From NCBI GenBank assembly GCA_036398095.1, contig DASWHR010000141.1, positions 1,138 to 65,137 of the forward strand: a stretch of 64,000 nt of DNA, in the 5' to 3' direction. Below are positions 22,221-50,372 of the stretch, one piece after another. The notes under the pieces are model-generated. The model ran no database searches. It was given only the letters and a program-made list of their open reading frames with translations, and was not told where the DNA came from. Within the stretch, counting starts at the first letter, position 1, and every line of letters begins with the position of its first letter. A program made the position numbers and the translations under genes. The stretch comes from Actinomycetota bacterium (GTDB taxonomy: Bacteria; Actinomycetota; AC-67).

Positions 22221-22770
22221 TCTCTACCGCGTCTTTCCCTATGATCCGGACGCGGCCCCACACGAGCCGGGCGGGGCGCTCCATGCTCCCCGAGATCGTC
22301 AGGGCAACGGACGCGCGGACAACCCAGGCCGCTACAGCGTCGTGTACTTCGCTGCGACACCTGCCGCAGCGGCCGCAGAACGCTTTCAATCCTTTGCCGG
22401 ACGCCGCGTGACGCCTGCCCACCTGCGTGGCGGCCGATCGGGACTGCCCTTGGCACTAGCGAACGTCTCAGTTCGACGCGACGACGCTCGCAATCTGGAC
22501 GACCCGGCTGCGCTCCAAGAACACGCCTTGATTCCCTCGGACGTCGCGACGCGCGATCGCCATGTCACGCAGGCCTGGGCATTGCGCTTGTGGGAGGCGG
22601 GCTTCCCCGGTGTGCGCTACTGGTCGGCCATCGAGGCCAAGTGGCCGGTGATCGCGCGGTGGTCGCTCGATGACGTGCGCGTGGAGCAGGTCGAGCCGCT
22701 CACCGTCTTCCACGCCGCGCTGCGGGAAGCGGCGGCCCTGCTCGGCATCGAGATCGGACGCAGTCGCTAG
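22213..22770 (+). CDS. RES-domain toxin (MbcT/ParT-like NAD+-targeting toxin).
   Basis: RES-domain layout with a conserved Arg context (GRYSVVYFAATP) and later Glu/Ser residues. 8-nt overlap with the Xre gene. Confidence 0.6.
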   Translation: MPDLYRVFPYDPDAAPHEPGGALHAPRDRQGNGRADNPGRYSVVYFAATPAAAAAERFQSFAGRRVTPAHLRGGRSGLPLALANVSVRRDDARNLDDPAALQEHALIPSDVATRDRHVTQAWALRLWEAGFPGVRYWSAIEAKWPVIARWSLDDVRVEQVEPLTVFHAALREAAALLGIEIGRSR

Positions 22771-22880
22771 GAGGGTGCTGAAAAAGACCGACCCGTGCCT
22801 GGTCGGACTTCAATCAGCCCAGGTCGGAGGGTTAACGTCGGGCGGGCATGCATGCAGACACTCACTTTTTCAGCACCCTC

Positions 22881-22884
<4 letters not shown>
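22767..22884. mobile_element. 118-bp MITE-like element, copy 1, with 20-bp terminal inverted repeats (CTAGGAGGGTGCTGAAAAAG ... CTTTTTCAGCACCCTCCTAG).
   Basis: Near-identical copy at 45805..45922. The terminal CTAG supplies the TAG stop of the RES toxin (+) and of menF (-). Internal palindromes (gcatgcatgc, gttaac). Confidence 0.65.
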
Positions 22885-24091
<1,207 letters not shown>

Positions 24092-24095
<4 letters not shown>

Positions 24096-24793
24096 GCGCG
24101 CGTTCCGATCAAGATCTGGACGATGCCGCCGCCGGGAGTGAGGCGGCCGACGTCGCGGAAGCCGGCGCGCACGAGCATGGCGAGCATCTCGTCGGGCGTG
24201 GGAAGGTAGGCGACCGAACGCGGCAGATACGCATACGCCGCGCGGTTCGACAGCAGCCCGCCGATCATCGGCACGATCCTCTTGAAGTAGACGGCATGTC
24301 CGGCGCGCAACACCGGATTGCGCGGCTCCGCGGTCTCGAGGATCGCGACGCGTCCGCCGGGGCGAAGCGCGCGCGCCATCTCGGCGAACAGCACCGACAG
24401 ATCCGAGACGTTGCGCAGCGCGAATCCGCACGTGATCCCGGCGGCCGCGCCGTCGCGGACGGGAAGGCGAAGCGCGTCGGCTTGAGCGAGCCGCGTCAGG
24501 CCACGCTCCTTCGCGCGGACGAGCATCTCGCCGGCGAAATCCATGCCGATCGCGTGCCATCCGCGGCGCTGGACCTCGAAACAGAAATCGCCGGTTCCGC
24601 AGGCGAGGTCGAGCACGACCGCGCCGGGCTCGACACCGAGCGTGCCGGCGGCGCGGCGGCGCCAGCCGCGATCCATCCCGAAAGTCATCACGCGATTGAC
24701 GGTGTCGTAGCGCGCGGCGATCGCGTCGAACATGGCTCGCACCGCGCGGGCTTTTTCTTCGCCGGCCGGCAGCGGCGCTACTCGGCGGGCCAT
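24092..24793 (-). CDS. menG: Demethylmenaquinone methyltransferase (UbiE/MenG).
   Basis: MFDAIAARYDTVNRVMTFGMDRGWRR, the UbiE signature. SAM motif I VLDLACGTGD. ATGA overlap with the menF start. Confidence 0.85.
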
Positions 24794-35202: not shown

Positions 35203-36204
35203 ATGCCGAACCAGATCGTTTCCCGCGCGTACGCGCCATCCCAGAGGGCGGCCGACACGCGCGCACGCACCGTTTCACGCCACGCGGCCGTCGGATTGCG
35301 GCTCGCCGCGGCCGGCGCAGCCTCGCTCGCCATCGCAGCGACCGGCGCGACCGCCTCGCCGCTGATCCCGATCGGCGTCGCGATCGCTGCCGTTTGCGGG
35401 CTTCAAGGCGGCATCGTCGCCGGCGCGATCTGCGGCGCGCTGGTGGTCACGGCGTCGCTGCCCCACCTGGCCGGAGAGACCGGCGCCGGATTCCAAGCGC
35501 TCAACCACGCGGCGACGTGGGCGGTGCTGTTTCCCTTGACGGGAACGACGGCCGGCCTGGTCCATGCGCTTCGCGCGCGTCCCGATGCGTCCGGTGAGCG
35601 ACGCCGGCTCGCGGCCGACCTGCACGACGGTGTCGCGCAAACGCTCGCTCATCTTCGGCTCGAACTGGACATGCTCGCCCACCCCGACCTCGGGCGCGTA
35701 AGCGACCCGGAGCGGCTGGCACGCCTTGCGCGCGTCGCCGACCGCACCCTCACCGACGTTCGCGCGCTCATCAGCGACCTTGCCGCCCCGATGCCGCCCG
35801 GCGGCCTGCCGGACGCGCTCCGCGAGCACGTTCATGCCGTGCAAGGATCCTTGGGCCCTTCGATCACGCTGGACGCGCCGGAGCCGACACGGGCAGGCGC
35901 ACTCGTCGAAGGACAACTGCTTCGCATCGCCCAGGAGGCCATCTCCAACGCCGTGCGACACTCGGGGGGGACGGCCGTGCACGTGCGGCTCGCGCCTGAT
36001 CCGGACGGCGCGACCCGCATGACGATCGACGACGACGGGTGCGGCCTCGCGCCCGGCGCCGCTCGTGACGGCGGCCTGGGCTTGGACACGATGCGCGAAC
36101 GCGCGCACGCCATCGGCGCGACGATCGCGATCGGCGTCCGTGAGGGCGGCGGAACACGCGTCGAGGTCCTCGCCCCCGCGACGCGCATGTCGAGGACCGC
36201 ATGA
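35203..36204 (+). CDS. Membrane sensor histidine kinase (HisKA_3 type).
   Basis: TM helices. H-box LAADLHDGVAQTLAHL. HATPase_c motifs (NAVRHSGG, DDDGCGL, GLGLDTMRERAHAIGA). Confidence 0.75.
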   Translation: MPNQIVSRAYAPSQRAADTRARTVSRHAAVGLRLAAAGAASLAIAATGATASPLIPIGVAIAAVCGLQGGIVAGAICGALVVTASLPHLAGETGAGFQALNHAATWAVLFPLTGTTAGLVHALRARPDASGERRRLAADLHDGVAQTLAHLRLELDMLAHPDLGRVSDPERLARLARVADRTLTDVRALISDLAAPMPPGGLPDALREHVHAVQGSLGPSITLDAPEPTRAGALVEGQLLRIAQEAISNAVRHSGGTAVHVRLAPDPDGATRMTIDDDGCGLAPGAARDGGLGLDTMRERAHAIGATIAIGVREGGGTRVEVLAPATRMSRTA

Positions 36205-36893
36205 GCACTGCGATCGAGGCCGGGGTCGGGGCCGGGGTCGGGGCCGGGGTCGAGGCCGGAACCGTCCGCGTCGTCCTGATCGACGACCATACGCTGGTGC
36301 GTCAAAGCGTCGGATTGATCGTCGGCGCGGCCGGTGGCTTCACCGTCGTCGCCGAAGCAGGCTCGGCCGAGGCCGGCCTTGCCGCCGTCGCGCTGCATCG
36401 TCCCGACATGGTCGTGCTGGACGTCGGCCTGCCCGGCCGAAGCGGGATCGAGATCGCGCAGGCGCTCAAGGCCGCGCATCCGGCAATGCGAATCATGTTC
36501 TTGACGATGCACGAAGACGAGGCGACGATCGCGAGCGCCGTCGCGCTCGGCGCCGACGGCTATGTGCTCAAGTCCGCCTCGACCGACGAACTGCTGATGG
36601 CGCTTCGCGCGATCGCGGCCGGCGCATCATTTCTGAGTCCCACCGTCGCGCGAAGCGTGATTCATCGCTCCCAGCCACGCTCGACCACCGTCGAGCTGAC
36701 CGATCGAGAGCTGGAAATCGTCCGTATGCTTGCCGAAGGCGCGCGGCCGGCTCAGATCGCAAAGACGCTGACGCTCTCGTTGCGGACGGTTCGCAACCAT
36801 CTGGCCAACGTCTACGCGAAGCTGGGCGTTCAAAGCGCCGCCCAAGCCGTCGCCGAGGCATACCGCCGCGGCTTCGTCGCCCGCTCGCTATAA
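36201..36893 (+). CDS. NarL/LuxR-family response regulator with an N-terminal GVGAGVGAGV low-complexity repeat.
   Basis: Receiver domain (VVLIDDH...DMVVLDVGLPGRSG) and LuxR HTH (LTDRELEIVRMLAEGARPAQIAKTLTLSLRTVRNHL). ATGA overlap with the kinase gene. Confidence 0.85.
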   Translation: MSTAIEAGVGAGVGAGVEAGTVRVVLIDDHTLVRQSVGLIVGAAGGFTVVAEAGSAEAGLAAVALHRPDMVVLDVGLPGRSGIEIAQALKAAHPAMRIMFLTMHEDEATIASAVALGADGYVLKSASTDELLMALRAIAAGASFLSPTVARSVIHRSQPRSTTVELTDRELEIVRMLAEGARPAQIAKTLTLSLRTVRNHLANVYAKLGVQSAAQAVAEAYRRGFVARSL

Positions 36894-37057: not shown

Positions 37058-37279
37058 ATGTCGGGTCTCGTCGGTTTCACTCGCACCTTCGCGAAGTACT
37101 GCGTCGCGCGCATGAACCTGCGCAGCGAGCGAGGTGCAACCGCAGTGGAGTACGGCCTCATGGTGGCGCTGATCGCCGCCGTCATCATCGCGGCCGTCGC
37201 GCTGCTGGGCAACAACACCAAGGACACGTTCCAGTGCACGGCCGACTCGGTCGCCGCGCGCGCGGACAACTGCCCGTAG
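37058..37279 (+). CDS. flp: Flp-family type IVb pilin 1. The true start may be the internal ATG near 37115 (MNLRSERGATAVEYGL).
   Basis: Flp motif GATAVEYGLMVALIAAVIIAAV, the prepilin cleavage context. Confidence 0.7.
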   Translation: MSGLVGFTRTFAKYCVARMNLRSERGATAVEYGLMVALIAAVIIAAVALLGNNTKDTFQCTADSVAARADNCP

Positions 37280-37381: not shown

Positions 37382-37564
37382 ATGCGCATTGCCCGCTCCA
37401 TCCGCCGGCGCGACCAGCGCGGCGCCACCGCCGTCGAATACAGCCTTCTGGCCGCGCTGATCGCCGCCGTCGTGCTCCTGGCCGTCCTCGTGCTGGGCTC
37501 GAACTCAAGCGATCTCTACGAATGCACGGGCAGCTCGATGGCTTCGCAGGTGACGCAATGCTGA
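37382..37564 (+). CDS. flp: Flp-family type IVb pilin 2.
   Basis: RGATAVEYSLLAALIAAVVLLAVLVL. Confidence 0.7.
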   Translation: MRIARSIRRRDQRGATAVEYSLLAALIAAVVLLAVLVLGSNSSDLYECTGSSMASQVTQC

Positions 37565-38007
37565 GGCTCCCACTCACGAGAGGATCGCGCGGACGTGACC
37601 AGCGGGGCGCCAGCGCCGTCGAGTTCGCGATCGTCATGACCGTGCTGTTCATGCTGCTGTTCGGCGTGGTGCAGTTCGGCATCGCATACAACCGCGCACA
37701 AGGCCTGGAAGCCGCCGCGCGCGAAGGCGCGCGATCCGCGTCCATCGGCTCGACCTACACGCAGATCCTCGCGCGGGTCCGGGAAGCCCAGTCGATGTTC
37801 ACGCCGGCCGACGTGGGGATCGTGACCACGCCGGCGACGAGCGGAACCCAGCGGCCGTGCCAGATCGCCGGCGTCGGCGGCACCGTGACGGTGCAGGCGA
37901 TCGTGCCCGAAAACAGCGCGTATGCGATCGCGATTCCCTTGTGGGGCAAGCGGCAGATCCGCTACACGGCGCTCGGCGTGTTTCGATGCGAACGGGGAAC
38001 CCCATGA
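37558..38007 (+). CDS. tadE: TadE-like minor pilin / pseudopilin.
   Basis: N-terminal RGASAVEFAIVMTVLFMLLFGVVQFG TadE motif. Start overlaps the flp2 stop. Confidence 0.7.
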   Translation: MLRLPLTRGSRGRDQRGASAVEFAIVMTVLFMLLFGVVQFGIAYNRAQGLEAAAREGARSASIGSTYTQILARVREAQSMFTPADVGIVTTPATSGTQRPCQIAGVGGTVTVQAIVPENSAYAIAIPLWGKRQIRYTALGVFRCERGTP

Positions 38008-39170
38008 TCCGGCGCGACGAGAGAGGCGCGACCGCGGTTATCGTCGCCGTGTCGCTGACGGCCGTCCTGGGCGCGGCGGTCCTGTCCATCGACTCGGGCA
38101 GCGTCTGGCGCACGCGCCGCAACCTGATCACCGACACCGACGCGGCCGCGCTTGCCGCCGCCCGGTATCTGGATGCGCAAGGCGCGCGCGCGTGCGACGC
38201 GACCGCGATCACCGACGCCCGCAGCGAAGCGTCCGGCATTGTCGCGGCGAACGACGCGCAGTCCACGCTGGACGGTTTCACGGTCACACCCACCGGCGGG
38301 GATTGTGCGGCCGAGTCGGGCCGCGTCCGCGTGGACGGTCGCTTGACCGCGCAGCTCAGCTTCGCCGGAATCTTCGGCATCGGATCGGTGCCGGTTGCGT
38401 CGTCTTCGATCGCGCAATGGGGACCGCTGTCGGCCGCGACCGGAATGCGGCCCATCGGCATCTGCGACAAGAGCGAGCACTTTCAGGAATGGAGCCGGTA
38501 CCTGCGCGGCGACGACACCGGATGGGGCGCGCCGGGAACGGGCCACCCGTCGTATCCGAACGCCGTCGTGCATCGAATCTACGTGCAACGCGGCGCGTCG
38601 GGATGCGGCGACGCGGCCGGCAACTGGGACTGGCTCGACTTCAACGGGGAGAGCCCGCCCAACGGCGTCACGGCGCTGCGCGAATGGTTCTACAACGGCT
38701 ACCAAGGCGTCGTATCGCTCGGCGATGAGGCGACCGGCAGCGTCAAGGACTGCGATCCGGAGCAGGCCGGTGCACAGGACGGCTGCGCGCCGCAGACCGG
38801 CAGCACCGGCGGCTCGCTGCTCGATTCGCTCGAGTACCTGCGCGACAACCGGATCACGTTCCCGATCATCGTCTACGACAAGGTCGTGGACGACCGGGAC
38901 CCGGCGAGCTGCCAGGCGCCGCCGCCGTGGACGGGATCCGGCACCAACGCCCGCTACTGCCACGTCGCGTTCCTGCTCGTGCGCGTGTACGGCTGGGATC
39001 GGATCACCGGGCAATTGCTCGACAACTCATTCGTCGATCTGGAGTTCGTGGACGAATGGTGGGTCGGCTCGATCGGACAGAACCCAAGCGGCGGCCGCGA
39101 GACGGTGCACGGCGTGTCGCTGTGCGGCGGCGGCTACGGAACGAACATCGATCAATCCTGCGACGTGTAA
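38004..39170 (+). CDS. TadG-like Flp pilus assembly protein (large pseudopilin).
   Basis: N-terminal ERGATAVIVAVSLTAVLGAAVLSID Tad pseudopilin-type segment. ATGA overlap with tadE. Confidence 0.6.
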   Translation: MIRRDERGATAVIVAVSLTAVLGAAVLSIDSGSVWRTRRNLITDTDAAALAAARYLDAQGARACDATAITDARSEASGIVAANDAQSTLDGFTVTPTGGDCAAESGRVRVDGRLTAQLSFAGIFGIGSVPVASSSIAQWGPLSAATGMRPIGICDKSEHFQEWSRYLRGDDTGWGAPGTGHPSYPNAVVHRIYVQRGASGCGDAAGNWDWLDFNGESPPNGVTALREWFYNGYQGVVSLGDEATGSVKDCDPEQAGAQDGCAPQTGSTGGSLLDSLEYLRDNRITFPIIVYDKVVDDRDPASCQAPPPWTGSGTNARYCHVAFLLVRVYGWDRITGQLLDNSFVDLEFVDEWWVGSIGQNPSGGRETVHGVSLCGGGYGTNIDQSCDV

Positions 39171-39204
39171 CAACGACCGAACAGATTCACGGGAGGAGTG
39201 ACCA

Positions 39205-39963
39205 ATGAGTATCGGAACGATGTCCCGGCGAGGAGTGAGCCTCGTCGTCGCGCTGCTGCTGGCCGCGCTGGCGACGGGTGCGTGGGTCTCCTACGTTCGC
39301 TCCATCGAGCGACGCGCGGTCGACGGCAACGCCACCCTGCAGATCTACATCGCCGGCGACGTGATCCCCGCCGGCACGACGGCCGAGCAGGCCGACGGCA
39401 ACAAGCTGCTCGTCAAGACCGGCGTCCCCAAGCGGCTCGTCGCCGAAGGCGCGGTCACCGAGCTGCCGCAGCTTCGCGGCACCGTCGCCTCGGTCACGAT
39501 CCAGAAAGGCGAGCAGATCCTTCGCACGCGCTTTACCTCGCCCGAGCAGGCCGCGCGGTTGCTGCAGATTCCGCCGGGTCTTCATGCGATGAGCGTCGAG
39601 GTGGCCGCCCCGCCGGGCGTCGGCGGATTCGTGCAACCTCACGATCGCGTGTCGGTGATCGCGAAGGTCTCGCCCGAGAACACCGATCCGGTCGTGCGCT
39701 TCCTGTTGCAGGACGTCGAGGTGCTCGCCGTCGGCTCGCGGACGAGCGCCGCCGCGCCGGCGTCGGGATCCCGGGAAGCCGCGCGCGAGAGCGCCGAACC
39801 GGTTCCGACCGATCGGATGCTGCTCACGCTCGCGGTCTCGCCGTTCCAGGCCGAGCAGCTCGCATTCGCGGTGCTGGAAGGCCAGGTGTACTTCACGCTG
39901 CTTCCGCCGGGCACGAAAGCAACCGGCACGCCGGGCCGGACGGCCGGAAACGTGTTCGGGTGA
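39205..39963 (+). CDS. cpaB: Flp pilus assembly protein CpaB/RcpC (SAF domain).
   Basis: N-terminal TM helix plus SAF-like and RcpC-like regions. Position between tadG and cpaE. Confidence 0.7.
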   Translation: MSIGTMSRRGVSLVVALLLAALATGAWVSYVRSIERRAVDGNATLQIYIAGDVIPAGTTAEQADGNKLLVKTGVPKRLVAEGAVTELPQLRGTVASVTIQKGEQILRTRFTSPEQAARLLQIPPGLHAMSVEVAAPPGVGGFVQPHDRVSVIAKVSPENTDPVVRFLLQDVEVLAVGSRTSAAAPASGSREAARESAEPVPTDRMLLTLAVSPFQAEQLAFAVLEGQVYFTLLPPGTKATGTPGRTAGNVFG

Positions 39964-39968
39964 TTTCG

Positions 39969-41159
39969 ATGATCGCGTTGATCGAGGCCGATCCCAACTT
40001 CCAAGCCCGCATCTCAAACGAGCTGGGATCACGGACGGAGCCGCTGCAGGTCCTGGGCTTGTCCGACGTCGAGCGGTTGACGTCGGGCGAGCCGGACCTG
40101 CCGGACGTTCTGATCCTGGGCCCGTCGGTTGGCGCACCCGACGCGCTCACCATCGCCGAACGGCTGCGCGCCGGCGCACCGGAGGTGAGCGTCGTGCTGA
40201 TCACCGACGCGCTCACGAGCGACCTGCTGCAAGCGGCGTTGCGCGCGGGCGTTCGCGACGTGCTCGGCTCGTCGTTCACCGGCGCCCAGCTGCAAGATGC
40301 GATCGAGCGGGCCGAGCAGGTCTCGCACGGCGTGCGGGACCGCGGCATTCCGCACGACGATCGCGAGCCGTCCGCTCCGTGCCGCGTCGTCACCGTGTTC
40401 TCCGCCAAGGGCGGCGTCGGCAAGTCATTCATCGCCGCGAACCTGGCGGTCCTGCTGGCGCAGCGTCACACTCGCGTCGCGCTGGTCGATCTGGACCTGC
40501 AGTTCGGGGATCAGGCGATCATGATGCAACTGTTCCCCGGCCGGACGATGTCCGAGGCTGCGGCCAACGTCGAGCGGCTCGATGTGGAATCGCTCCCCGG
40601 GTACATGACGCCGCACAAGTCCGGGCTGCACCTGCTGGCCGCGCCGCTCGAGCCCGGCCTGGCCGAGACGATCCAGCCGTCGGCGACGCAGCGAATCCTG
40701 CGGCTGCTTCGCCAGTCGTTCGACATCGTCGTGATCGACACGCCGGCGCTGTTCACCGAACACGTGCTTGCCGCGCTCGACGAATCCGACGAGTGCATCT
40801 TCATGACCAGCCTCGACGTTCCCAGCATCAAGAACACGAAGCTGGCATTGCAGACGCTCGAGATGCTGGGCGTCGGCAAGGAACGCATTCGACTGCTGCT
40901 CAACCGCGCCGACGCGCAGGTGGGGCTGCGCGTGCAAGAGGTCGAACGGATGCTCGGCGCGCGCGTCACGACCCAGATCCCGTCGTCGCGGGAAGTTCCG
41001 CTGTCCATCAACCAAGGCACGCCGCTTGCGCTGGCTGATCCGCGTTCGGGCGTTACGGTCGCACTCCGCGAGCTGGCCGAATCGGTCGGCCGCGGCGCGC
41101 CCGTCCACGAGCCCGACGCCAAAGGCGGCCGGTTCCGTTTGAAGAGGAAGGTGTCATGA
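39969..41159 (+). CDS. cpaE: CpaE/TadZ: receiver-like N-domain fused to a ParA/MinD-type ATPase.
   Basis: Deviant Walker A VFSAKGGVGKSFIAANLA. Confidence 0.8.
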   Translation: MIALIEADPNFQARISNELGSRTEPLQVLGLSDVERLTSGEPDLPDVLILGPSVGAPDALTIAERLRAGAPEVSVVLITDALTSDLLQAALRAGVRDVLGSSFTGAQLQDAIERAEQVSHGVRDRGIPHDDREPSAPCRVVTVFSAKGGVGKSFIAANLAVLLAQRHTRVALVDLDLQFGDQAIMMQLFPGRTMSEAAANVERLDVESLPGYMTPHKSGLHLLAAPLEPGLAETIQPSATQRILRLLRQSFDIVVIDTPALFTEHVLAALDESDECIFMTSLDVPSIKNTKLALQTLEMLGVGKERIRLLLNRADAQVGLRVQEVERMLGARVTTQIPSSREVPLSINQGTPLALADPRSGVTVALRELAESVGRGAPVHEPDAKGGRFRLKRKVS

Positions 41160-42532
41160 GCCTGTACGAACGACTCTCGAAGGCGCGCGACGTGGCGCCG
41201 GCCGGCAACGGCGGCTCCGTCGCCGAGCTTCGCATCGCCGATCCGTTCGCCGAACTCAAACGCGGCATCCATCAGGCGCTCGTCGCGGCGCTCGGACCGA
41301 AGCTCTACGACAAGACGATGACGGCCGAGCAGCTCGAGGCGCACGTCCGGGAACAACTCGGCGACGTGCTCGCCGGCACCGAGACGCCGCTGTCGGGCGC
41401 CGACCGGCAGCGCCTGTCCCGCGAGATCGCCGACGACATCCTCGGCCACGGTCCGATCGAGCCCTACCTTCAGGATCCGACCGTGACCGAGGTCATGGTC
41501 AACGGTCCCTACACCGTCTACATCGAGCGCGAAGGCAAGATCGTGCGCACGCCGGCCCAGTTTCTCGATGAGGCGCATCTCCGGCACACGATCGACAAGA
41601 TCGTCGGTCGCGTCGGCCGGCGCATCGATGAGGCCTCGCCGTACGTGGACGCACGCCTGCCCGACGGCAGCCGCGTCAACGCGGCGATCCCGCCGATCAT
41701 GCTCGACGGGCCGGTGCTTACGATTCGAAAGTTCAGCCGCGAGCCGTTCAAGGCGCAGGATCTGGTGGCGTTCGGAACCATGAGCGCGAAGCTGTCGTCG
41801 TTCCTGGAGGCGAGCGTTCGCGGCAAGATCAACATCATCATCTCCGGCGGGACCGGGGCCGGGAAGACGAGCACGCTCAACGTGGTCTCGTCGTTCATCC
41901 CGGAAAACGAACGGATCATCACGATCGAGGACTCGGCCGAGCTTCGGCTGAACCAGCCGCACGTGGTTCGCGCCGAGTCGCGACCGCCGAACATCGAAGG
42001 ACGCGGGCAGGTCTCGATCCGCGACCTGGTCCGCAACTCGCTCCGCATGCGGCCCGACCGGATCGTGGTCGGCGAGGTTCGCGGCGGCGAAGCGCTTGAC
42101 ATGCTCCAGGCTATGAACACCGGTCATGACGGCTCGATCTCGACCGCGCACGCCAACACGCCCCGGGACGCATTGTCCAGGCTGGAGACGATGTGCCTGA
42201 TGGCCGGCATGGATCTGCCGGTTCGCGCGATCCGCGAGCAGATCGCTTCGGCGGTTCAACTGATCGTGCACCAGTCGCGCCTCAAGGACGGGACGCGCCG
42301 CATCACACACGTCACCGAAGTCGTCGGCATGGAAGGCGACGTGATCACGCTGCAAGACCTGTTCCTGTTCGACTTCGGGATGGGCCTGGACGATGCCGGC
42401 AAGTTCCGCGGACACATCAAGCCGACCGGCATCCGCCCGAAGTTCGCCGAGCATCTCAAAGACGTCGGCGTGCCGCTTCCGGCCGACATGTTCGAGCCCG
42501 AGCCGTTCGCGCGAGAGGAGGCGTGGGCATGA
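41156..42532 (+). CDS. cpaF: CpaF/TadA type II/IV secretion ATPase.
   Basis: Walker A GGTGAGKTS, Asp box, Walker B and His box (IVVGEVRGGEA...TGHDGSISTAHAN). Confidence 0.9.
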   Translation: MSLYERLSKARDVAPAGNGGSVAELRIADPFAELKRGIHQALVAALGPKLYDKTMTAEQLEAHVREQLGDVLAGTETPLSGADRQRLSREIADDILGHGPIEPYLQDPTVTEVMVNGPYTVYIEREGKIVRTPAQFLDEAHLRHTIDKIVGRVGRRIDEASPYVDARLPDGSRVNAAIPPIMLDGPVLTIRKFSREPFKAQDLVAFGTMSAKLSSFLEASVRGKINIIISGGTGAGKTSTLNVVSSFIPENERIITIEDSAELRLNQPHVVRAESRPPNIEGRGQVSIRDLVRNSLRMRPDRIVVGEVRGGEALDMLQAMNTGHDGSISTAHANTPRDALSRLETMCLMAGMDLPVRAIREQIASAVQLIVHQSRLKDGTRRITHVTEVVGMEGDVITLQDLFLFDFGMGLDDAGKFRGHIKPTGIRPKFAEHLKDVGVPLPADMFEPEPFAREEAWA

Positions 42533-43506
42533 CGCCGCTGCTGCAGGCATCGCTCGTGTCGTTCGCCGCGCTGGCGATCATCTTCGGGATCATCCTGACC
42601 GGCCGGCGCGACCGCGGCGCCGTCAAACGCATCGAGCGACGGATCAAGCTGTATTCCATCGGCTCCGGCGGGAAGCGCACGCGCACGAAAGGCGTGCTTG
42701 CCGAATCGCCGGTCGCGCGTCGCGCGGTGGATCTGGTGGACAAGCTGCCGCGCAGCCCCAAGAAGGACAAGGCGCTGGCCGCCCAGTTGGAGCGCGCCGG
42801 CTGGCCGCTGCGGCCCGCGGAGATGCTCGCCATTCGCCTTGCGGCCGGCGCCGGCGCCGGGGTGGCGCTGGCGATCCTGCTCGGCAAACCGCTCGCCGGT
42901 CCGATCGTCGCGGTCGTCGCCTACCTCGTCCCCAAGACGGCGCTCGACCGGGCCGTCGCCAAGCGCACGAACAAGTTCCTCGGACAGCTTCCCGACACGC
43001 TGCAGCTTCTGTCGGGTTCGCTGAAAGCCGGCTACGGGCTGGTGCAGGCCGTCGATACGCTTGTGAAGGAAACGCCGGCGCCGACATCGACGGAATTTTC
43101 GCGCGTGCTCGCCGAGACGCGCCTGGGCATGCCGCTGGAGGATTCGCTGCACCAGATGGCCGAGCGCATCGGCAGCGAGGACTTCGCCTGGGTCGTCATG
43201 GCGATCTCGATCCAACGGCAAGTCGGCGGAAATCTCGCCGAGCTGCTCTCGACCGTCGCGACCACGCTGCGCGACCGCGAAGCCGTGCGGCGCCAGGTCA
43301 AGGTTCTGTCCGCCGAAGGACGCCTGTCGGCATACATCCTGATCGGCTTGCCGTTCGCGATCGCCGGCTACGTCGCGATGGTCAATCCCGAGTTCTTGGA
43401 GCAACTGACCGGCGAGCGCGTCGGCCAGATCATGATCGCCGGATCGCTCGTGTTGATGGGCATCGGCGCGGCCTGGATGCGCAAGATCATCCGGATCGAC
43501 GTGTAA
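42529..43506 (+). CDS. tadB: TadB (T2SS-F family inner-membrane platform protein).
   Basis: T2SSF-type domain. ATGA overlap with cpaF. Confidence 0.8.
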   Translation: MTPLLQASLVSFAALAIIFGIILTGRRDRGAVKRIERRIKLYSIGSGGKRTRTKGVLAESPVARRAVDLVDKLPRSPKKDKALAAQLERAGWPLRPAEMLAIRLAAGAGAGVALAILLGKPLAGPIVAVVAYLVPKTALDRAVAKRTNKFLGQLPDTLQLLSGSLKAGYGLVQAVDTLVKETPAPTSTEFSRVLAETRLGMPLEDSLHQMAERIGSEDFAWVVMAISIQRQVGGNLAELLSTVATTLRDREAVRRQVKVLSAEGRLSAYILIGLPFAIAGYVAMVNPEFLEQLTGERVGQIMIAGSLVLMGIGAAWMRKIIRIDV

Positions 43507-43521
43507 AGGAGTGACGACGCG

Positions 43522-44457
43522 ATGATCATCGGAACAACCGTCGCCGCCGCCGTCTTCTTCGCCGGCTGCGCGCTCGCATTCGTCACGATTGAAGGAGTCG
43601 TGGTCGAACGCGCCCGCGTCAACCGAAACATGCGGCGCCTGAAGAACATCGACTTGAAAGCGACCGATCTTCGCCGCAAGGAGCTGGCCAAGCCGTTCGC
43701 CGGCCGCGTGGCCTGGCCGCTGCTGCGATTCGTCGGCCGCTTCGCGAAGAAGTTCACGCCGGCCGGCGTGGTCGAGCGCCTGGCACACGATCTCGTCTAC
43801 GCGGGCAGCCCGGTCGCGTGGGACGCCGAACGGATTCTGGCGACAAAGCTGGTCGCCGCGGCCGGCGGCTTTCTGGTGCCGTCGCTCGGCGGGCCGCTGC
43901 TCGGGATGGCGCCGGTCCGCGGCATCGTCGGCGGCGTGGTCTTCGCAATCCTCGGCTACTACGCGCCCGAGTGGGCGCTGCGGTCGCGGGCCGGCACGCG
44001 GCAGGCCGCGATTCAGCGGGCGCTGCCGGATGCGATGGATCTGCTCTCGATCACCGTCGAGGCCGGACTGGGATTCGACGCGGCCGTCAAACGCGTCGCC
44101 GGACAGGCGCGCGGACCTTTGGGCGAGGAATTGCATCGCGTGCTTCAAGAGATGCAGATCGGAAAGCCGCGCGCCCAGGCGCTGCGTTCGCTCGCCGACC
44201 GGACGTCGGTTCCCGAATTGCAATCGTTCGTGCTGGCGATGGTGCAGGCCGACTCGTTCGGCATCGCCATCGGGCAGGTGCTGCACGTGCAGGCCCGGGA
44301 GATGCGTTTGAAGCGGCGGCAGCGCGCGGAGGAACGCGCACAGAAGATTCCGGTGAAGATCCTGATGCCGCTGTTGGGGTGCGTGTTCCCGTCGCTGTTC
44401 GTGGTCATTCTGGGGCCGGCCGGCATCCAGATCTACCGGAGCATGCTGAGCAACTAG
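43522..44457 (+). CDS. tadC: TadC (T2SS-F family inner-membrane platform protein).
   Basis: T2SSF-type domain (LPDAMDLLSITVEAGLGFDAAV). Confidence 0.8.
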   Translation: MIIGTTVAAAVFFAGCALAFVTIEGVVVERARVNRNMRRLKNIDLKATDLRRKELAKPFAGRVAWPLLRFVGRFAKKFTPAGVVERLAHDLVYAGSPVAWDAERILATKLVAAAGGFLVPSLGGPLLGMAPVRGIVGGVVFAILGYYAPEWALRSRAGTRQAAIQRALPDAMDLLSITVEAGLGFDAAVKRVAGQARGPLGEELHRVLQEMQIGKPRAQALRSLADRTSVPELQSFVLAMVQADSFGIAIGQVLHVQAREMRLKRRQRAEERAQKIPVKILMPLLGCVFPSLFVVILGPAGIQIYRSMLSN

Positions 44458-44458
44458 C

Positions 44459-45808
44459 ATGAGGATCCTCGCGTTCACCACAGATGCCTCGCTCGAGGTG
44501 GCTCTTGCCTCGCTCGACGAGCGGTTCGAAATCGTCGCCGCCCGCGATCCGGAAGGGGCGCTCGCCGAGGCGTGCCGGTCGGATCTTGCGCTCGTCGCGC
44601 TGGGCACGACCGATCGCGGCCGCAGCGCGGTCGAAGCGCTGCACCGGCTGCGCGTCGGCATCCCGTGCCTGATCGTCGGCGACGTCGTTCCCGGCGACGA
44701 CGGAGCCGTCCCTGTGCTCGTGCGCCCGTTCTCGCTCGGCGACCTGACCGAGGCGATGGTGCGTGCCGTGCAGCGCCCGTCAGTCCCGGAGTCTCAGCCG
44801 GAGCCCGAGCCGGAGGCCGCCGAACCCTTCATTGACCTGCCTCCCCCGGTCGCCACAGCGGCGCAGCCGGAGCCGGAACCACAGCCGGAACCGGAGCCGG
44901 AACCGCAGCCGGACGAGGTACCGGACGAGGTACCGGCGGCGTTTCCCGATCACGAGACGGTCGAAGAATTGCTTCGGCAATTGGAGGAGGCCGCGGCCGC
45001 CGTGCCGCCCGCCGCCGCAACACCGTCCAGGGATCCGGTGTCGTGGGCGCTGGACGCGCTGCACGAGATCGGCGACGCCCCCGCGCCCGAACCGCGAGCG
45101 CGGCCGCTTCCGGCCGGCGCCGCGCCCGAGCAAGAAGCCACCGCCGCGCGCATCGTGCGTCATGCCGCCGCCGCTCCCCGCAGCGGCGACTGGCTCGCCG
45201 ACCGCGGCGGCGAACGAAGCGGGCTCCATCGCCTGCGTCGCCGCCGGCGTGCGATCCCGGTGGCCGGCTCGCCGCGCGCATCGATCATGCGCCGCGTCCG
45301 CTCGGCGCTGGAAGGCGCGCGCGAACTGGAGGCGCTGCTCGAAGAGATCCCGTCCCTGTCGGACCCGCATGCGATGGCGCGCGCGCTGGTGCGCGAAGCC
45401 GTCGAGCTGCTCGGCTCCGAGACGGCGGCGCTGTACTCCGCCGACCCCGACGGGTATCGCATCGCCGCGGCGCACGGCTTGTCCCCCGTCGAGCAGTCGA
45501 TTGTGGTTCCGCGCGAGCAGCCGTTGTTCGGCGACGTCGCCGGCCGCTTGGAAGCGGTTCTGGTCGCGCCGGTCGATCTGGTTCGGGGGCTCGTCGCAGG
45601 CATCGGCGGCACAACCACCGAGGCACTGATGCTCGCGCCGCTGGACGTGGACGGGCGATGCGCCGGCATTCTGCTCGCCGGCCGTTCGCGCTTCGGAGAC
45701 GAAGACTTGGAACGTCTGTGGCATCTCGCCGAGGAAGCAGCGCCGGGCTTCGCAGCCGCGCGACTGATCGAGCGGATCCGCCGGCGCGACCTTCCCGTCG
45801 CGCTCTAG
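44459..45808 (+). CDS. Regulatory protein made of a receiver-like N-domain, a Pro/Glu-rich (PEPEPQ) repeat linker and a C-terminal GAF domain.
   Basis: The N-terminus resembles a degenerate REC domain. Tandem PEPEPQ coding repeats at about 44790-44935. The C-terminal about 170 aa is GAF-like. Confidence 0.6.
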   Translation: MRILAFTTDASLEVALASLDERFEIVAARDPEGALAEACRSDLALVALGTTDRGRSAVEALHRLRVGIPCLIVGDVVPGDDGAVPVLVRPFSLGDLTEAMVRAVQRPSVPESQPEPEPEAAEPFIDLPPPVATAAQPEPEPQPEPEPEPQPDEVPDEVPAAFPDHETVEELLRQLEEAAAAVPPAAATPSRDPVSWALDALHEIGDAPAPEPRARPLPAGAAPEQEATAARIVRHAAAAPRSGDWLADRGGERSGLHRLRRRRRAIPVAGSPRASIMRRVRSALEGARELEALLEEIPSLSDPHAMARALVREAVELLGSETAALYSADPDGYRIAAAHGLSPVEQSIVVPREQPLFGDVAGRLEAVLVAPVDLVRGLVAGIGGTTTEALMLAPLDVDGRCAGILLAGRSRFGDEDLERLWHLAEEAAPGFAAARLIERIRRRDLPVAL

Positions 45809-45922
45809 GAGGGTGCTGAAAAAGACCGACCTGTGCTTGGTCGGACTTCAATCAGCCCATGCCGGAGAGTTAACATCGGGCGGGCTTGCATGCAGACACT
45901 CACTTTTTCAGCACCCTCCTAG
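45805..45922. mobile_element. 118-bp MITE-like element, copy 2, with the same 20-bp terminal inverted repeats as copy 1.
   Basis: About 93% identical to 22767..22884. Its left CTAG supplies the TAG stop of the REC-GAF gene. Confidence 0.65.
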
Positions 45923-45947
45923 CAGGATCCGGGTACGCTAACGCGCC

Positions 45948-46436
45948 ATGCGCACCCGAACGGCGGGCATGATCGCCTCGCGCGTCCTCGCGATCTATAT
46001 CGCCTTCACGTCGATCATCTTTTCCGGCGAGTTGATTCACGCGCTCATCGAAGGTCGCCCGGCCGGCGTCGTCGCCGAATCGGCCCTGCCGGCCGGCGTC
46101 GCGCTCGGACTGGCGCTGCTTCTTTGGGTCGCCGCGCCGGCCGTCGCCGATCGTCTGGCCGGCAGCGCGAGCGGCGGCGCGGGCGAAGAAGACTCGCCGG
46201 CCCGCGCCGCGGACATCGCGGCGATTGCATTCACCGTCGCCGGGCTGTTCATCGCCGCCCAGGCGTTGCCTCTGGTCGCGCACGCGCTGACGCGACTCGC
46301 GATCGGCGAAGGCACCGGGCGCGACATCGCGGCGGATCTCGCCTCGGCCATCGCTCGCACCACCATCGGAGCGGCGCTGGCCGCGACCGCCCGGTCGCTT
46401 GCCAAGCGCTTGTTTGCGCCCGAAAGCACCCGGTAG
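45948..46436 (+). CDS. Hypothetical polytopic membrane protein.
   Basis: Four or more hydrophobic helices. More plausible than the Arg-rich antisense ORF 45900..47135. Confidence 0.45.
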   Translation: MRTRTAGMIASRVLAIYIAFTSIIFSGELIHALIEGRPAGVVAESALPAGVALGLALLLWVAAPAVADRLAGSASGGAGEEDSPARAADIAAIAFTVAGLFIAAQALPLVAHALTRLAIGEGTGRDIAADLASAIARTTIGAALAATARSLAKRLFAPESTR

Positions 46437-46517
46437 CTCCCGCCCTTCAGATCGCGGGGAAAGTCTGCCCGATCGGACATGTTCGGATGCCGGCGATCTG
46501 GGGCAGGATTGAAAGTC

Positions 46518-47198
46518 ATGCGTCCGGTCGCCGTTCCCACGAGTGTCGTTTCGGCGCTGGCCGTTGCGATCGCGGCACTGCTGACGGCCGGCACCCCGAT
46601 CGCGATCCGCCACGCATCGACGAACGCCGCCGGGGGGTCGGACATCGTCCCGAGCGCTCGAGACGGCATCGAGGTCGTGATCGCGCCACGCTCCGCGGGT
46701 TCGCGAAGCGACCGCGCCGAAACCCGCCGGCCCGCCGAGGCAGTTGCCGGTCCCGCCGTGACCGACCCCGCCACAACTCCGATGGCCGCGACCGCGGCGC
46801 CCTTCACACTCGAGCTTCCGGACGGCTGGTCGGGCGGAGAGATCGGCGCCTTCGACGACGACGCGAAACGCTCGTTCCGCTACACCGACGAGGCCGGCCG
46901 GTATTTTGTGGTCAACATCGATCCGGCCGGAAGCGAGTTCGACGCCGACGAAGTCTGGCGCTATCGCGTGGAAGACCACGAACGCTTCGTCGTGACCCGT
47001 CAGGAGCGCTGCGTTCCGAGCGAACCGATGTGCTCGCTCGGCGACGGCGCCCAGACGATCTACGCGCTCTGGGACGAGGGCGGCTCGGCCAGGGTCGGTG
47101 GCCACGCCTACTACTTCCGCTTCGGCGATGAGCACAACGAGATCGGCGGGACCCGCGTGTTCCGGCAGATTCTCGAAAGCATTCGCGCCCGGGCGTAA
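46518..47198 (+). CDS. Hypothetical secreted protein.
   Basis: Signal peptide MRPVAVPTSVVSALAVAIAALLTAG. No recognisable domain. Confidence 0.5.
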   Translation: MRPVAVPTSVVSALAVAIAALLTAGTPIAIRHASTNAAGGSDIVPSARDGIEVVIAPRSAGSRSDRAETRRPAEAVAGPAVTDPATTPMAATAAPFTLELPDGWSGGEIGAFDDDAKRSFRYTDEAGRYFVVNIDPAGSEFDADEVWRYRVEDHERFVVTRQERCVPSEPMCSLGDGAQTIYALWDEGGSARVGGHAYYFRFGDEHNEIGGTRVFRQILESIRARA

Positions 47199-47369
47199 AC
47201 GACCGGCTCACCACGGAAGGTTCTTCCGCCTTCGCAGGAGATATCCCCCGCCGCGGCGAACCCTGCGCCCAACGACCGACTCGGAGTGTGTCGTTTTGCG
47301 CAGACCGGAGTGGGGGCTCCGGCGCACACTCGAACCTATCGGATCGTCACCGGATCGAGGAGGAATCTC

Positions 47370-47852
47370 ATGTCGCTTCGCCGCATCGCCGCACCCATGA
47401 TCGCCGTCGCCGCTCTGGGCGCCGGACTGCTCGTCCCGTCCGCCGCGTCGGCCGTCGAATGCGGTCGCGGAACGACCTTCGCCAAGTTCGTTCAGCCCGA
47501 AGGCGGGCAATTGTCGGCGAACACGCACCTTGGCGGCATCGCCTACACCGCGCCGGCAGCGGCCGTGCCGTCGGTCATGCTCTCCACGACCGGCCAGATC
47601 GAGGTCAAGATCGAGCACAAGTGCCTGCAGGCGATGCGCCTGACCGTCTACAAGGATGGCGTCGACGCGCCGATCCACACCAACACGTGGGATCCGCTGT
47701 CGTGCGAGGAAGCCGTCACGACCGACACCGTCAACATCGGATTGGACGGCGGCACCTACAAGTTCGTGCTCGACGGCCTCGGATGCGAAGGCGTTCCGCT
47801 GACCCCGACCGAGCATGGCGGACTCGTGGGCGACCCGCCGCTGGGCTTGTAG
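47370..47852 (+). CDS. Small secreted Cys-containing hypothetical protein.
   Basis: Signal peptide, four Cys, and a GAGGAGG RBS 7 nt upstream of the ATG. Confidence 0.5.
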   Translation: MSLRRIAAPMIAVAALGAGLLVPSAASAVECGRGTTFAKFVQPEGGQLSANTHLGGIAYTAPAAAVPSVMLSTTGQIEVKIEHKCLQAMRLTVYKDGVDAPIHTNTWDPLSCEEAVTTDTVNIGLDGGTYKFVLDGLGCEGVPLTPTEHGGLVGDPPLGL

Positions 47853-47953
47853 AAGCACCGACACCACCAGGGGGCCCCGGGCATCGTCCCGGGGCCTTCG
47901 CATCGTTCCCTTCTTCCGGGGAATGGGCGCCCGCCGCGGCTAGCATCGGGGCG

Positions 47954-48985
47954 ATGCCCCGCGCGCTCGCCGCGGCGCTCGTCGCCGCGCTCATCGGTGC
48001 GGCCGCCGCTTCGCCGGCGGCGGCATCTTCATCGTCGCTCCCGCCGTTGTCGGCGGCGGCCGCGGCGTCCTACGACGTGGTCGGACAACGATTCGTGCGG
48101 CAAGTCAACGCCGACGTTCGCATGGCGCCCGCCAGCCTTGCCAAGATGCTGGTCGCGCTGATCGTCGCCGAGCATCTCGCACCCGACGAGCAAGTCATGA
48201 TCTCGCACCGCGCCGCATCGACCAAGCCCGACAACATCCGCTGGCCGGAAGGAGCGATCTACACGGCCGATCAACTGCTTCACGCGATGATGATGGAATC
48301 ATCCAACGGAGCGGCGGTCGCGTTCGCCGACCACCTCGCCGGGTCGGTCGCCACGTTCTCGGAGATGATGGATGCGAAAGCGGCTGCGCTGGGCGCGCGC
48401 GACACGCATATCGTCGAGCCGAGCGGACTCGACGCCGAGGGCCAGTACTCGACGGCGCACGACATGGCGCTGATCGCGGCCGCGGTGGTCCGCCAGCCCT
48501 GGCCGGCCTCGGTGGTAGGCACCAGGAGGCACGTGATCCCCTGGACGAACGGCGGCACGTACACGCTTCACACGCTCAACGGGTGGATCGTGCGGTTCGA
48601 CGGAGCGCTCGGCGTCAAGAACGGCTACACGACGAAGGCGGGGAACTGCCTTGCCGCCGCGGCGACGAGACACGGCCGGACCGTCGTCACGGTCGTCCTC
48701 AACGATCGCCGCTGGTATGCCGACAGCGCGGCGCTCATGCTCGACGCGTTCCCTCGCGCGGTGGCGGGCGAGGTCAAGCCGCTTCCCGCACCGGCGAGCG
48801 CGGCCGCCGCCGACCTGCGCGCGGCCGCTGCCACGGCGCCGGCCGCCGGGCCGTCGAAGCTGACGGCGACGGCGCTGGCGTTCGCGGTCGCGGCGCTTAC
48901 GGTCGCGGCCCGCCGGCGGCAAGTGGTGCGGCGCCGGCGTGCCCGCGCGCTGGCGCGTCGCTCGCATCTTCCCCGGTTGCCGTAG
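47954..48985 (+). CDS. D-alanyl-D-alanine carboxypeptidase (S11, PBP5/DacB-like).
   Basis: SxxK (ASLAKM), SxN (ESSNGA) and a KTG-like motif (KNGYTT). Signal peptide and C-terminal anchor. Confidence 0.75.
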   Translation: MPRALAAALVAALIGAAAASPAAASSSSLPPLSAAAAASYDVVGQRFVRQVNADVRMAPASLAKMLVALIVAEHLAPDEQVMISHRAASTKPDNIRWPEGAIYTADQLLHAMMMESSNGAAVAFADHLAGSVATFSEMMDAKAAALGARDTHIVEPSGLDAEGQYSTAHDMALIAAAVVRQPWPASVVGTRRHVIPWTNGGTYTLHTLNGWIVRFDGALGVKNGYTTKAGNCLAAAATRHGRTVVTVVLNDRRWYADSAALMLDAFPRAVAGEVKPLPAPASAAAADLRAAAATAPAAGPSKLTATALAFAVAALTVAARRRQVVRRRRARALARRSHLPRLP

Positions 48986-50372
48986 CCTCGTCGCGCAACA
49001 GCACGCAGAAACGCGCGCCCCCGCCCGGACGATTCTCAACCCACGCGCGACCTTCGTGCATCTCGGCGAAGCGACGCACGAGCGACAAGCCGATGCCGGT
49101 GCCTGGCGCATGCGATGTCGAAGTGTCGCCGCGTCGGAACACGTCGAACACCGCCGTCTTCAGATGATCGGGAACGCCGGGCCCGTCGTCTTCGACGACG
49201 ATCACGAATCCGTCCGGCGCTTCGGCGAGGCGCACCCAGATCGTGGCGCCTTCGGGCGTGTGCCGCGCGCAGTTGACCGCCAGGTTCTCCACGATGCGCT
49301 CGACCTTCGGTCCATCGACGTTGGCGACGAACGAGCCGGTTGGAGGGTGCAGGCGGCGGCCGCCCAGGTCGACCCCGGCGACGGCCGATCGAATGATCTC
49401 GAGCACGTCAACCGGGCGGCGCGAGGGCCGGATCGTGCGCCGATATAGGCGATCCAAGTCGAGCAAGTCGCGCAGCAGCCGGTCGAGCTTGCGGGCGTTC
49501 ACGACCAGCCGGTCCATGATCATGTCCGCCTCGGACTCGGCGAGCGAATCCTTGTGCTCCTGCAGTGTCAACGCGAATCCGAGCACGGCGGCGAGCGGCG
49601 TGCGCAACTCGTGCGAGACGGCTTCCAGGAACGAGTTCTTCATGTCGTTGAGCGAGCGGAGGCGTTCGGCGGCTTCGCGTTCGCGTTCGAACGAAACGCG
49701 GATCGCGTCTTCGGCGCGCGAGCGCGAGATCGCTTCGCCGACGAGGTTGGCGATCGACTGGAGGAAGGCGGCGTCGTGGGTCGAGAATGCGCCGGGCGCG
49801 CGTGCATGCGCGCCAAGAATCCCGAACCGGCCGCTAGAGCCCAGGATCACTACGCCGCAGAGGCTCCGGATGTCGTGGGACGTCAGGATCGGCGGACGCT
49901 CAAAGCGGGTTTCGGTCGCCAGATCTTCTACGACCACCGGTTCGGCCGACTCGAGGATGTAGCCGGCGGCGCTTCCCGGGACCGAGGGCACCGACGATCC
50001 CACGATGCCGTCCCGCCAGCCGCGGCCGGCGCGAAACAGCAGCCGGTCGCGTTCGGGGAGCGCTTCCAGAATGCCGACGCAATCAACGCGCAAGGTGTCG
50101 ATAACGACGCGGATCGCGTCGTCGAGCAGCATGTCGACGGGCATGCCCGACAGCGCTCGAAGCCCGAGATCCGCGATCGCCTTCTGCTGCCGAACCCGGT
50201 CGGCAAGCTCGTCCTCGGCGGAACGGCGCTCGAGTTGAATGAATGGAACGTCCCTCGCCACAGGTCGATGCTTCCAGAGCATGGTTGGTGCGGCAATGGC
50301 CCGAACGAACCACATTGACCGATCCCGGGCCGCCCAAGAGTCCGACTCGTCCTGATCGGGCCAATCATGCAA
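48897..50372 (-). CDS. Cytoplasmic GAF-domain sensor histidine kinase.
   Basis: GAF domain, then HisKA (SHELRTPL) and HATPase_c (DDGPGVPD, GTGIGLSLV). Confidence 0.8.
   Translation of the reverse strand: MHDWPDQDESDSWAARDRSMWFVRAIAAPTMLWKHRPVARDVPFIQLERRSAEDELADRVRQQKAIADLGLRALSGMPVDMLLDDAIRVVIDTLRVDCVGILEALPERDRLLFRAGRGWRDGIVGSSVPSVPGSAAGYILESAEPVVVEDLATETRFERPPILTSHDIRSLCGVVILGSSGRFGILGAHARAPGAFSTHDAAFLQSIANLVGEAISRSRAEDAIRVSFEREREAAERLRSLNDMKNSFLEAVSHELRTPLAAVLGFALTLQEHKDSLAESEADMIMDRLVVNARKLDRLLRDLLDLDRLYRRTIRPSRRPVDVLEIIRSAVAGVDLGGRRLHPPTGSFVANVDGPKVERIVENLAVNCARHTPEGATIWVRLAEAPDGFVIVVEDDGPGVPDHLKTAVFDVFRRGDTSTSHAPGTGIGLSLVRRFAEMHEGRAWVENRPGGGARFCVLLRDEATATGEDASDAPARGHAGAAPLAAGGPRP

Follow-up and report, generated by a model that had tools for sequence, protein, structure and literature searches.

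A Predicted Pseudo-Receiver/GAF Protein With a Hypervariable Linker, Encoded Directly After tadC in Tad Pilus Loci of Uncultured Actinomycetota

The tad Operon and Its Terminal Gene

The window analyzed here, a stretch of 64,000 nucleotides (nt) from an Actinomycetota bacterium (contig DASWHR010000141.1 of assembly GCA_036398095.1, positions 1,138 to 65,137 of the forward strand), contains a tad locus ending in a gene for a protein of 449 amino acids (aa), hereafter the focal gene and focal protein, in which a degenerate receiver-like domain is joined by a long disordered linker to a GAF domain. Tad/Flp pili mediate adhesion, the formation of biofilms, and the sensing of surfaces. The focal gene had been singled out in an earlier annotation of the window (the original prediction) as encoding an unusual tad-linked protein, and the tad linkage was confirmed, with the focal gene standing last in a flp-to-tadC operon. 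The operon comprises, in order, genes for a HisKA_3 kinase and a LuxR-type regulator, two flp pilins, tadE, a tadG-like gene, rcpC, cpaE/tadZ, cpaF, tadB, tadC, and the focal gene (Table 1). In the window, as in the comparison loci L006, L009, L012, and L013, the genes immediately preceding flp encode the kinase and the REC-GerE regulator, which plausibly control transcription of the tad locus.

The start codon of the focal gene lies one base past the tadC stop (TAGCATG), and the two genes are probably translationally coupled. The reading frame proved to be a real gene: it is intact, its G+C content by codon position (0.82/0.54/0.82) is close to that of the neighboring cpaF and tadC, and the alignment of its homologs begins at Met1, which supports the start codon. 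Independent gene callers also called an identical 449-aa product on L012 and L013, though an exact look-up found the sequence absent from the protein collection. Scans of the full protein against Pfam and NCBIfam returned only GAF matches from Pfam and none from NCBIfam. No hydrophobic or membrane-like segment occurs outside the folded GAF domain, and the protein is thus expected to be cytoplasmic. It contains 46 Arg but neither Lys nor Asn, unlike the neighboring Tad proteins and more distant family members, in which Lys is present; this may be a mere extreme of G+C bias, or, more speculatively, an escape from lysine-directed modification such as pupylation in Actinomycetota.

Table 1. Coordinates of the focal gene, its domains, and associated features (window positions unless a comparison locus is given).
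Feature	Position	Strand	Remarks
HisKA_3 kinase	ends at 36204		Upstream of LuxR-type regulator
NarL/LuxR-type response regulator (REC-GerE)	36201-36893	+	
flp pilins	37058-37279 and 37382-37564	+	
tadE		+	Between second flp and tadG-like gene in operon order
tadG-like gene	38004-39170	+	
rcpC	39205-39963	+	
cpaE/tadZ	about 39969-41159	+	Own receiver-like domain
cpaF	41156-42532	+	
tadB	42529-43506	+	
tadC, T2SSF platform protein	43522-44457	+	Directly upstream of focal gene; T2SSF match, E = 4.8e-23
Focal gene, complete (pseudo-receiver/disordered linker/GAF protein)	44459-45808	+	ATG to TAG, 449 aa
Predicted aspartate-less pseudo-receiver, aa 1-105	44459-44773	+	Profile match to PhoP, AlphaFold, Foldseek
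Codon GCG, Ala47, at canonical phospho-acceptor position (PhoP D51)	44597-44599	+	HMMER alignment to PhoP
Disordered linker, aa 106-271, 166 aa	44774-45271	+	Low confidence in structure model; most gapped and least conserved part of alignment
Coding tandem repeats	44867-44936	+	Tandem Repeats Finder
Basic patch, aa 251-282, GLHRLRRRRRAI...MRRVR	45209-45304	+	Net charge +10; runs into first GAF helix
GAF domain with N-terminal helix, aa 272-442 (Pfam match aa 302-428)	45272-45784	+	Pfam, AlphaFold, Foldseek
Giant family versions of ~1100 aa, directly after tadC	L027:4920-8321, L021:4931-8281, L024:4933-8054, L023:3030-5693		
118-bp MITE-like element, focal copy	45805-45922	.	Begins at last base of final sense codon
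118-bp MITE-like element, second copy	22767-22884		94% identical to focal copy

The N-Terminal Receiver Fold

In the AlphaFold model, the N-terminal domain (mean predicted local distance difference test [pLDDT] score 89.7) adopts a five-stranded receiver fold with the predicted order b1-a1-b2-a2-b3-a3-b4-loop-b5-a5, an 11-residue loop taking the place of helix alpha4. Foldseek comparison with the PDB returned a top 50 consisting nearly entirely of receivers, plus the receiver-like KaiA and GlnR, with query-normalized TM-scores of 0.67–0.77 for the top matches. A profile built from 15 family N-domains aligned end to end with the PhoP receiver (aa 1–106 against 1–118, E = 6.9e-5), followed by BasR/PmrA, the PhoP of Bacillus, and CheY. 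The resemblance to a REC domain noted in the original prediction was thus borne out by profile and structure comparisons, although the Pfam Response_reg model (PF00072) matched neither the focal protein at E ≤ 0.1 nor any of the 15 family N-domains at E ≤ 10. FleQ_N (PF06490) scored 15.6 bits on the focal N-domain, below its cut-off of 22, and matched 10 of the 15 family members (best E = 2.4e-5). A recent duplication of the receiver-like domain of CpaE/TadZ was considered as an origin and rejected, as the N-domain profile gave no meaningful match to the CpaE of the same locus.

None of the five receiver catalytic residues is kept in the focal protein. In the HMMER alignment, the acidic pair E8/D9 of PhoP is replaced by T7/T8, T79 by G74, and K101 by R89; the motif LALVALGTTDRG, whose phospho-acceptor context had originally been called unclear, corresponds to the beta3 acceptor strand, with Ala47 in place of the Asp. 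By published class definitions (PMC12632262), the N-domain would belong to the aspartate-less subclass of pseudo-receivers, and its sequence predicts that phosphorylation at the canonical site is impossible. Across 104 family N-domains, the acceptor column holds Asp in 66, Gly in 17, Ala in 13, and Glu in 6; the focal clade has thus lost an acceptor that most relatives keep. The replacement residues are themselves strongly conserved among the 104 sequences (T7 in 83, G74 in 93, R89 in 91, and P90 in 103), which argues that the active-site face is selected for something other than phosphotransfer.

Linker, Tandem Repeats, and Basic Patch

The region between the folded domains is rich in Pro (19%), Ala (19%), and Glu (13%), carries a net charge of -15 over its first 60 residues, and has pLDDT below 50 over aa 118–161 and 213–266; three predicted helices and the basic patch also lie within it. 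The original prediction had described a Pro/Glu-rich spacer of about 60 aa, which holds for the low-complexity stretch (about 58 aa, aa 106–163) but not for the non-domain region as a whole, which is 166 aa long.

The predicted coding repeats within the linker were recovered by Tandem Repeats Finder as two arrays, specifically one at 44867–44913 (period 12/24, unit CCGGAGCCGGAACCACAGCCGGAA, 95% matches at period 24), encoding PEPEPQPEPEPEPQ, and one at 44909–44936 (period 12, CCGGACGAGGTA, 2.3 copies, 100% matches), encoding DEVPDEVP; a weaker array lies at 44786–44815. When the codons of the reading frame were shuffled, an exact tandem 12-mer arose in 2 of 2000 shuffles. The comparison of repeat number between strains that had been proposed revealed no change in two copies from other samples, which at 99.93% identity are too close to be informative.

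Over larger distances, the linker is by far the most variable part of the protein. A word-indexed protein search recovered 16 relatives. In comparison with the 16 closest homologs, the folded domains are 34–91% identical and almost gap-free, whereas the linkers are 21–61% identical with 44–125 gap columns. Linker length has a median of 159 aa in the family and reaches 473 aa among aligned representatives; the overall extremes are linkers of only a few residues and, in variants of about 1100 aa, linkers of about 800 aa, with domain order kept throughout. The expectation that the spacer would be prone to length variation is therefore correct on an evolutionary scale.

The linker ends in a basic RLRRRRR patch in which R258 and R262 make up an RxxxR pair; both are unchanged throughout the 17-sequence alignment and occur in 78 and 69, respectively, of 114 family members. 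We tentatively take this pair to recall cyclic di-GMP (c-di-GMP)-binding motifs. Linkers are net negative in 92% of family members, and the last 35 linker residues have a median charge of +4.

The GAF Domain

A C-terminal GAF domain, as originally proposed, was recognized by three Pfam models above their gathering cut-offs, specifically GAF_3 (PF13492, 34.4 bits, cut-off 27), GAF_2 (PF13185, 31.9 bits, cut-off 28.6), and GAF (PF01590, 30.4 bits, cut-off 22.4), with E-values from 3e-8 to 7e-7. The full-length AlphaFold model has pLDDT above 90 over aa 272–442, and Foldseek matched this region to solved GAF domains of a Geobacter GAF/HD protein, DosS (GAF-A), DevS (GAF-B), and PixJ (E = 1e-7 to 1e-5; target-normalized TM-scores 0.64–0.78). 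Family-specific motifs include G340-L-S, E345, Q354-P-L, L368-x-x-P-V-D373, G381-I-G-G384-x-x-T-E, and E426-A-A-P-G430. Six of the 10 positions conserved in at least 85% of members fall within aa 340–388, between beta2 and beta4. The canonical GAF ligand pocket is formed by the beta2–beta4 segments, and the conservation pattern mildly favors a functional pocket.

The suggestion that the domain may place pilus assembly under cyclic-nucleotide control was not supported. The NKFDE motif is the signature of cyclic-nucleotide-binding GAF domains of the PDE2/5/6 and CyaB type, and it cannot be present in a protein that has neither Lys nor Asn. The solved GAF domains nearest to the family profile are those of PtsP and Nlh2 (E about 2e-3), and the cyclic-nucleotide-binding relatives CyaB2 and PDE2A appeared in that search only at E = 0.12–1; the single focal sequence matched no solved GAF domain. 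With sequence matches at E about 2e-3 as the closest, no ligand can be inferred, and the structural neighbors have heme, bilin, or cAMP as ligands, or none that is known. Additionally, no second-messenger enzyme was detected near the locus among the large open reading frames (ORFs) tested.

Distribution and Synteny With tadC

When 1.84 billion cluster representatives (50% identity) were searched exhaustively with a profile, the family numbered 358 representatives at E ≤ 1e-3, 200 at E ≤ 1e-10, and 126 at E ≤ 1e-30, and all named members belong to metagenome-assembled genomes of uncultured Actinomycetota. Further word-indexed searches with diverse full-length and GAF-only alignments added very few members and no organism names beyond those already obtained; the choice of candidates in these searches was probably governed by low-complexity words. 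Ten longer members of 552–902 aa were examined for extra fused domains and showed at most the GAF domain, the additional length being linker or over-called starts.

Among the 12 loci with upstream sequence that were chosen by means of the focal protein, tadC lies directly upstream on the same strand in all 12, down to 29% identity of the focal protein, with gaps of -4 to +20 nt. In the reverse approach, 80 metagenome loci were fetched with a TadC alignment (44 of them with at least 1.5 kb of downstream sequence). All four loci with TadC at least 58% identical carry the N-domain 12–26 bp downstream of tadC, and four loci at 46–49% TadC identity carry giant versions of ~1100 aa with the same domain order, in which a receiver-like N-terminus (VVIDVP...VQRPFE) and a GAF-like C-terminus (RGALAGIPGSRAETL) are separated by ~800 aa of Pro/Ala/Ser-rich low-complexity linker; no Pfam model detected these giant versions. 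Conversely, other genes follow tadC in about 39 of the 44 loci. Coupling to tadC at the operon level is thus tight and evolutionarily persistent within the clade, and among close relatives both the receiver and GAF homology and the presence of the gene in the tad locus were recovered. However, the gene's absence after most distant tadC genes indicates that it is dispensable for Tad function in general. The protein is therefore a clade-specific accessory and not a core Tad component.

Two further observations concern genes of other tad loci. In another clade of actinobacterial-type tad loci (L051, L054, L058–L060, L069, L070, L073, L079, and related loci), tadC is followed by a conserved membrane protein of ~450 aa with the N-terminus ...RRFSIAHLxLxxPWVALVIDAWAPIRDNSF and no Pfam match (checked in L054), which looks like another uncharacterized tadC-linked gene. 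In locus L008 (7093–9057), tadB has a 654-aa product in which the T2SSF platform domain is joined to VWA domains in a single fusion protein.

Relationship to Known Regulators

Searches of the full-text literature gave no paper that connects GAF proteins with Tad systems, none that describes the focal protein, and, as the original prediction had supposed, no characterized Tad component with such an architecture. The focal protein is built of common domains but represents an uncharacterized, sizeable family with a consistent place in the pilus operon and an unusual, hypervariable tether.

In logic it resembles FimX and FrzS, although it belongs to neither family. The N-terminal receiver-like domain of FimX is likewise degenerate. 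FimX of Pseudomonas and Xanthomonas is a multidomain cytoplasmic protein with a C-terminal c-di-GMP-sensing module that acts post-translationally on the type IVa motor PilB (PMC5595344, PMC8389850). FimX carries PAS, degenerate GGDEF, and EAL domains, however, all of which are missing from the focal protein with its GAF domain and long disordered linker, and it serves a type IVa pilus rather than a Tad (type IVc) pilus of a monoderm lineage; the two are homologous in the receiver fold only. FrzS of Myxococcus xanthus has an N-terminal pseudo-receiver without the acceptor Asp, binds neither Mg2+ nor a phosphoryl analog, and controls type IV pilus function via protein interactions and localization (PMC1974792, PMC9811614). 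Its output region is a long coiled coil and its gene lies outside the pilus operon, whereas the focal protein has a disordered linker and a GAF domain and no coiled coil.

The atypical receiver of TadZ/CpaE (PF16968) and the N-domain of FleQ (PF06490) share with the focal N-domain a receiver fold that lacks phosphorylation chemistry, and both belong to regulators of surface appendages. Of the Pfam models, only FleQ_N matches the focal N-domain even weakly, and that match is below the cut-off; the focal protein also lacks an AAA+ domain. TadZ/CpaE combines TadZ_N with a ParA/MinD ATPase, neither of which is found in the focal protein, and CpaE is encoded separately in the locus. As for the GAF domain, the stand-alone and N-terminal sensor domains of PtsP/EI-Ntr, Nlh2/NifA-type, and DosS/DevS proteins share its fold and Pfam clan and are the nearest solved relatives, but similarity in sequence is marginal (E about 2e-3), and the focal GAF has its own motifs (PVD...GxVxGIGG...TE and EAAPG) and a different partner domain.

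Putative Function

With moderate confidence, we interpret the focal protein as a lineage-specific subunit of the Tad (Flp, type IVc) pilus machine, soluble and cytoplasmic, that has an accessory or regulatory role and acts post-translationally. The protein would be made together with TadC, as suggested by gene adjacency and the near-overlapping stop and start codons. Its non-phosphorylatable pseudo-receiver may dock constitutively on one of the machine's components, for which CpaF, the cytoplasmic loops of TadB/TadC, and the receiver-like domain of CpaE/TadZ are candidate partners, and the C-terminal GAF domain may sense a small molecule or mediate dimerization. The acidic disordered tether and the basic patch could then let the sensor act on the motor or be sequestered, tuning pilus assembly post-translationally. 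Since a separate kinase and LuxR-type regulator plausibly already provide transcriptional control, a post-translational role is what is left open and is the most economical reading.

Several points weigh against this interpretation. In 63% of family members the acceptor Asp is still present, and some relatives might use acyl-phosphate chemistry, though the acidic pair, the Thr, and the Lys are missing from them too. Most of the more distant actinobacterial-type tad loci have no copy of the focal gene behind tadC. A GAF domain can serve for dimerization without a ligand, no ligand class is indicated here, and the proposed pocket conservation was read from secondary-structure positions and textbook topology rather than from inspected coordinates. 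Finally, the constituent domains are common, the hosts are uncultured, and the protein is known from sequence and predicted structure alone.

The alternatives differ mainly in what they take the two domains to contact. Receivers present their active-site face to kinases, and the conserved surface of the N-domain is that face; together with the kinase and REC-GerE genes directly upstream of flp, this would suit a connector or modulator of the adjacent two-component system, in which the pseudo-receiver acts as a decoy on the HisKA_3 kinase, the GAF domain supplies a cytoplasmic signal, and flp/tad transcription is controlled via the LuxR-type regulator. We consider this unlikely, as the focal gene and the two regulatory genes occupy opposite ends of the operon and the focal gene is closely tied to tadC, which precedes it even on contigs of very distant members. 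A similarly doubtful alternative is a ligand-free scaffold or localization factor in which the GAF domain is a dimerization module and the block-charged disordered region is a spacer or clusters the machinery, much as disordered polar organizers cluster machinery at a site in other bacteria. It would accommodate a linker that varies from few residues to about 800 aa under a constant domain order, the prevailing negative charge of the linker followed by a basic patch, and the lack of any ligand signature found in the GAF domain. Long terminal helices usually form GAF dimer interfaces, however, whereas the strongest family conservation is in the beta2–beta4 loops, and the linker sequence is unconserved, so that function would rest on composition alone. 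FrzS nevertheless provides a precedent for a pseudo-receiver working through localization (PMC1974792, PMC9811614).

That the focal gene encodes a generic GAF signaling protein, unrelated to the pilus and at the operon end by chance, is very improbable. In its favor are the absence of the gene from most distant tad loci and the lack of a match between the protein and any known Tad family; however, same-strand adjacency to tadC at -4 to +20 nt in all 12 loci, despite divergence to 29% identity, and again in eight loci found independently via TadC, argues against chance.

A more far-reaching version of the favored interpretation, in which the focal protein represents a hitherto unrecognized class of type IV filament regulator, is put forward only tentatively and is itself improbable at present. 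The aspartate-less receiver would be permanently docked on the Tad motor or platform, and the ligand-sensing GAF domain, tethered by the disordered acidic linker, would switch pilus extension on or off in monoderm Actinomycetota; evolution could adjust the length of the linker, at roughly 50 to 800 aa, and the GAF domain, perhaps with the RxxxR patch, would bind a nucleotide second messenger or a metabolite. If true, this would be a dedicated post-translational sensor for Tad pili, without known precedent in characterized systems.

To our knowledge, the post-translational regulation of CpaF, the single bifunctional motor, is poorly understood, especially in Gram-positive lineages without outer-membrane components. 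A dead receiver and sensor coupled to tadC is a concrete candidate for the missing regulatory input to this motor, and the family, in which linkers differ extremely in length while domain order stays constant, offers a natural experiment on tether length in a bacterial signaling protein.

Other Features of the Window

The 3' end of the focal gene overlaps an element resembling a miniature inverted-repeat transposable element (MITE), of which the window holds two copies (Table 1). Both are bounded by perfect 20-bp terminal inverted repeats, CTAGGAGGGTGCTGAAAAAG...CTTTTTCAGCACCCTCCTAG (four matches, none expected by chance). In the focal copy, the left outer CTAG contains the TAG stop of the focal gene, whereas the outer CTAGs of the second copy give the stops of two convergent genes, specifically a plus-strand gene ending at 22770 and a gene for a chorismate-binding enzyme (22881–24560, minus strand); the outer CTAG resembles a duplicated target site. 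The element, which folds into a single long hairpin (minimum free energy -60.3 kcal/mol, z = -7.4), lies at the 3' end of the focal transcript. All other fetched orthologous loci, those of other lineages, lack it, and an Rfam scan of positions 44000–46500 returned no match at E ≤ 1.

As is typical of DNA with 70% G+C, very long overlapping ORFs occur in other frames and on the other strand of the tad region. A 653-aa ORF at 39198–41159 is an over-extended version of cpaE, the true start of which lies near 39969, after rcpC, and an 801-aa minus-strand ORF (42256–44661) overlapping the real genes was dismissed for lack of family support. The minus-strand ORFs at 45900–47135 (411 aa) and 47208–47903 are probably spurious as well, as they have no family matches and gene callers place plus-strand genes there, with conserved counterparts in L002 and L011.

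Three small plus-strand genes come after the focal gene, specifically 45948–46436 (162 aa), 46518–47198 (226 aa), and 47370–47852 (160 aa). All three are syntenic in L011 and L002 at 56–65% identity, the first also in L009, and none has a Pfam or NCBIfam match; they may be further uncharacterized members of the locus. About 3 kb downstream of the focal gene, a GAF-HisKA-HATPase histidine kinase (48897–50315, minus strand) provides a second GAF sensor near the tad locus; it adjoins a Peptidase_S11 gene and a SpoIID/PG_binding gene, an arrangement also seen in L011 and L012. Farther away, the window encodes a probable surface protein of 702 aa (4534–6642, minus strand), which carries Calx-beta and fibronectin type III domains, and a very long plus-strand ORF (28539–32828) with multicopper oxidase domains.

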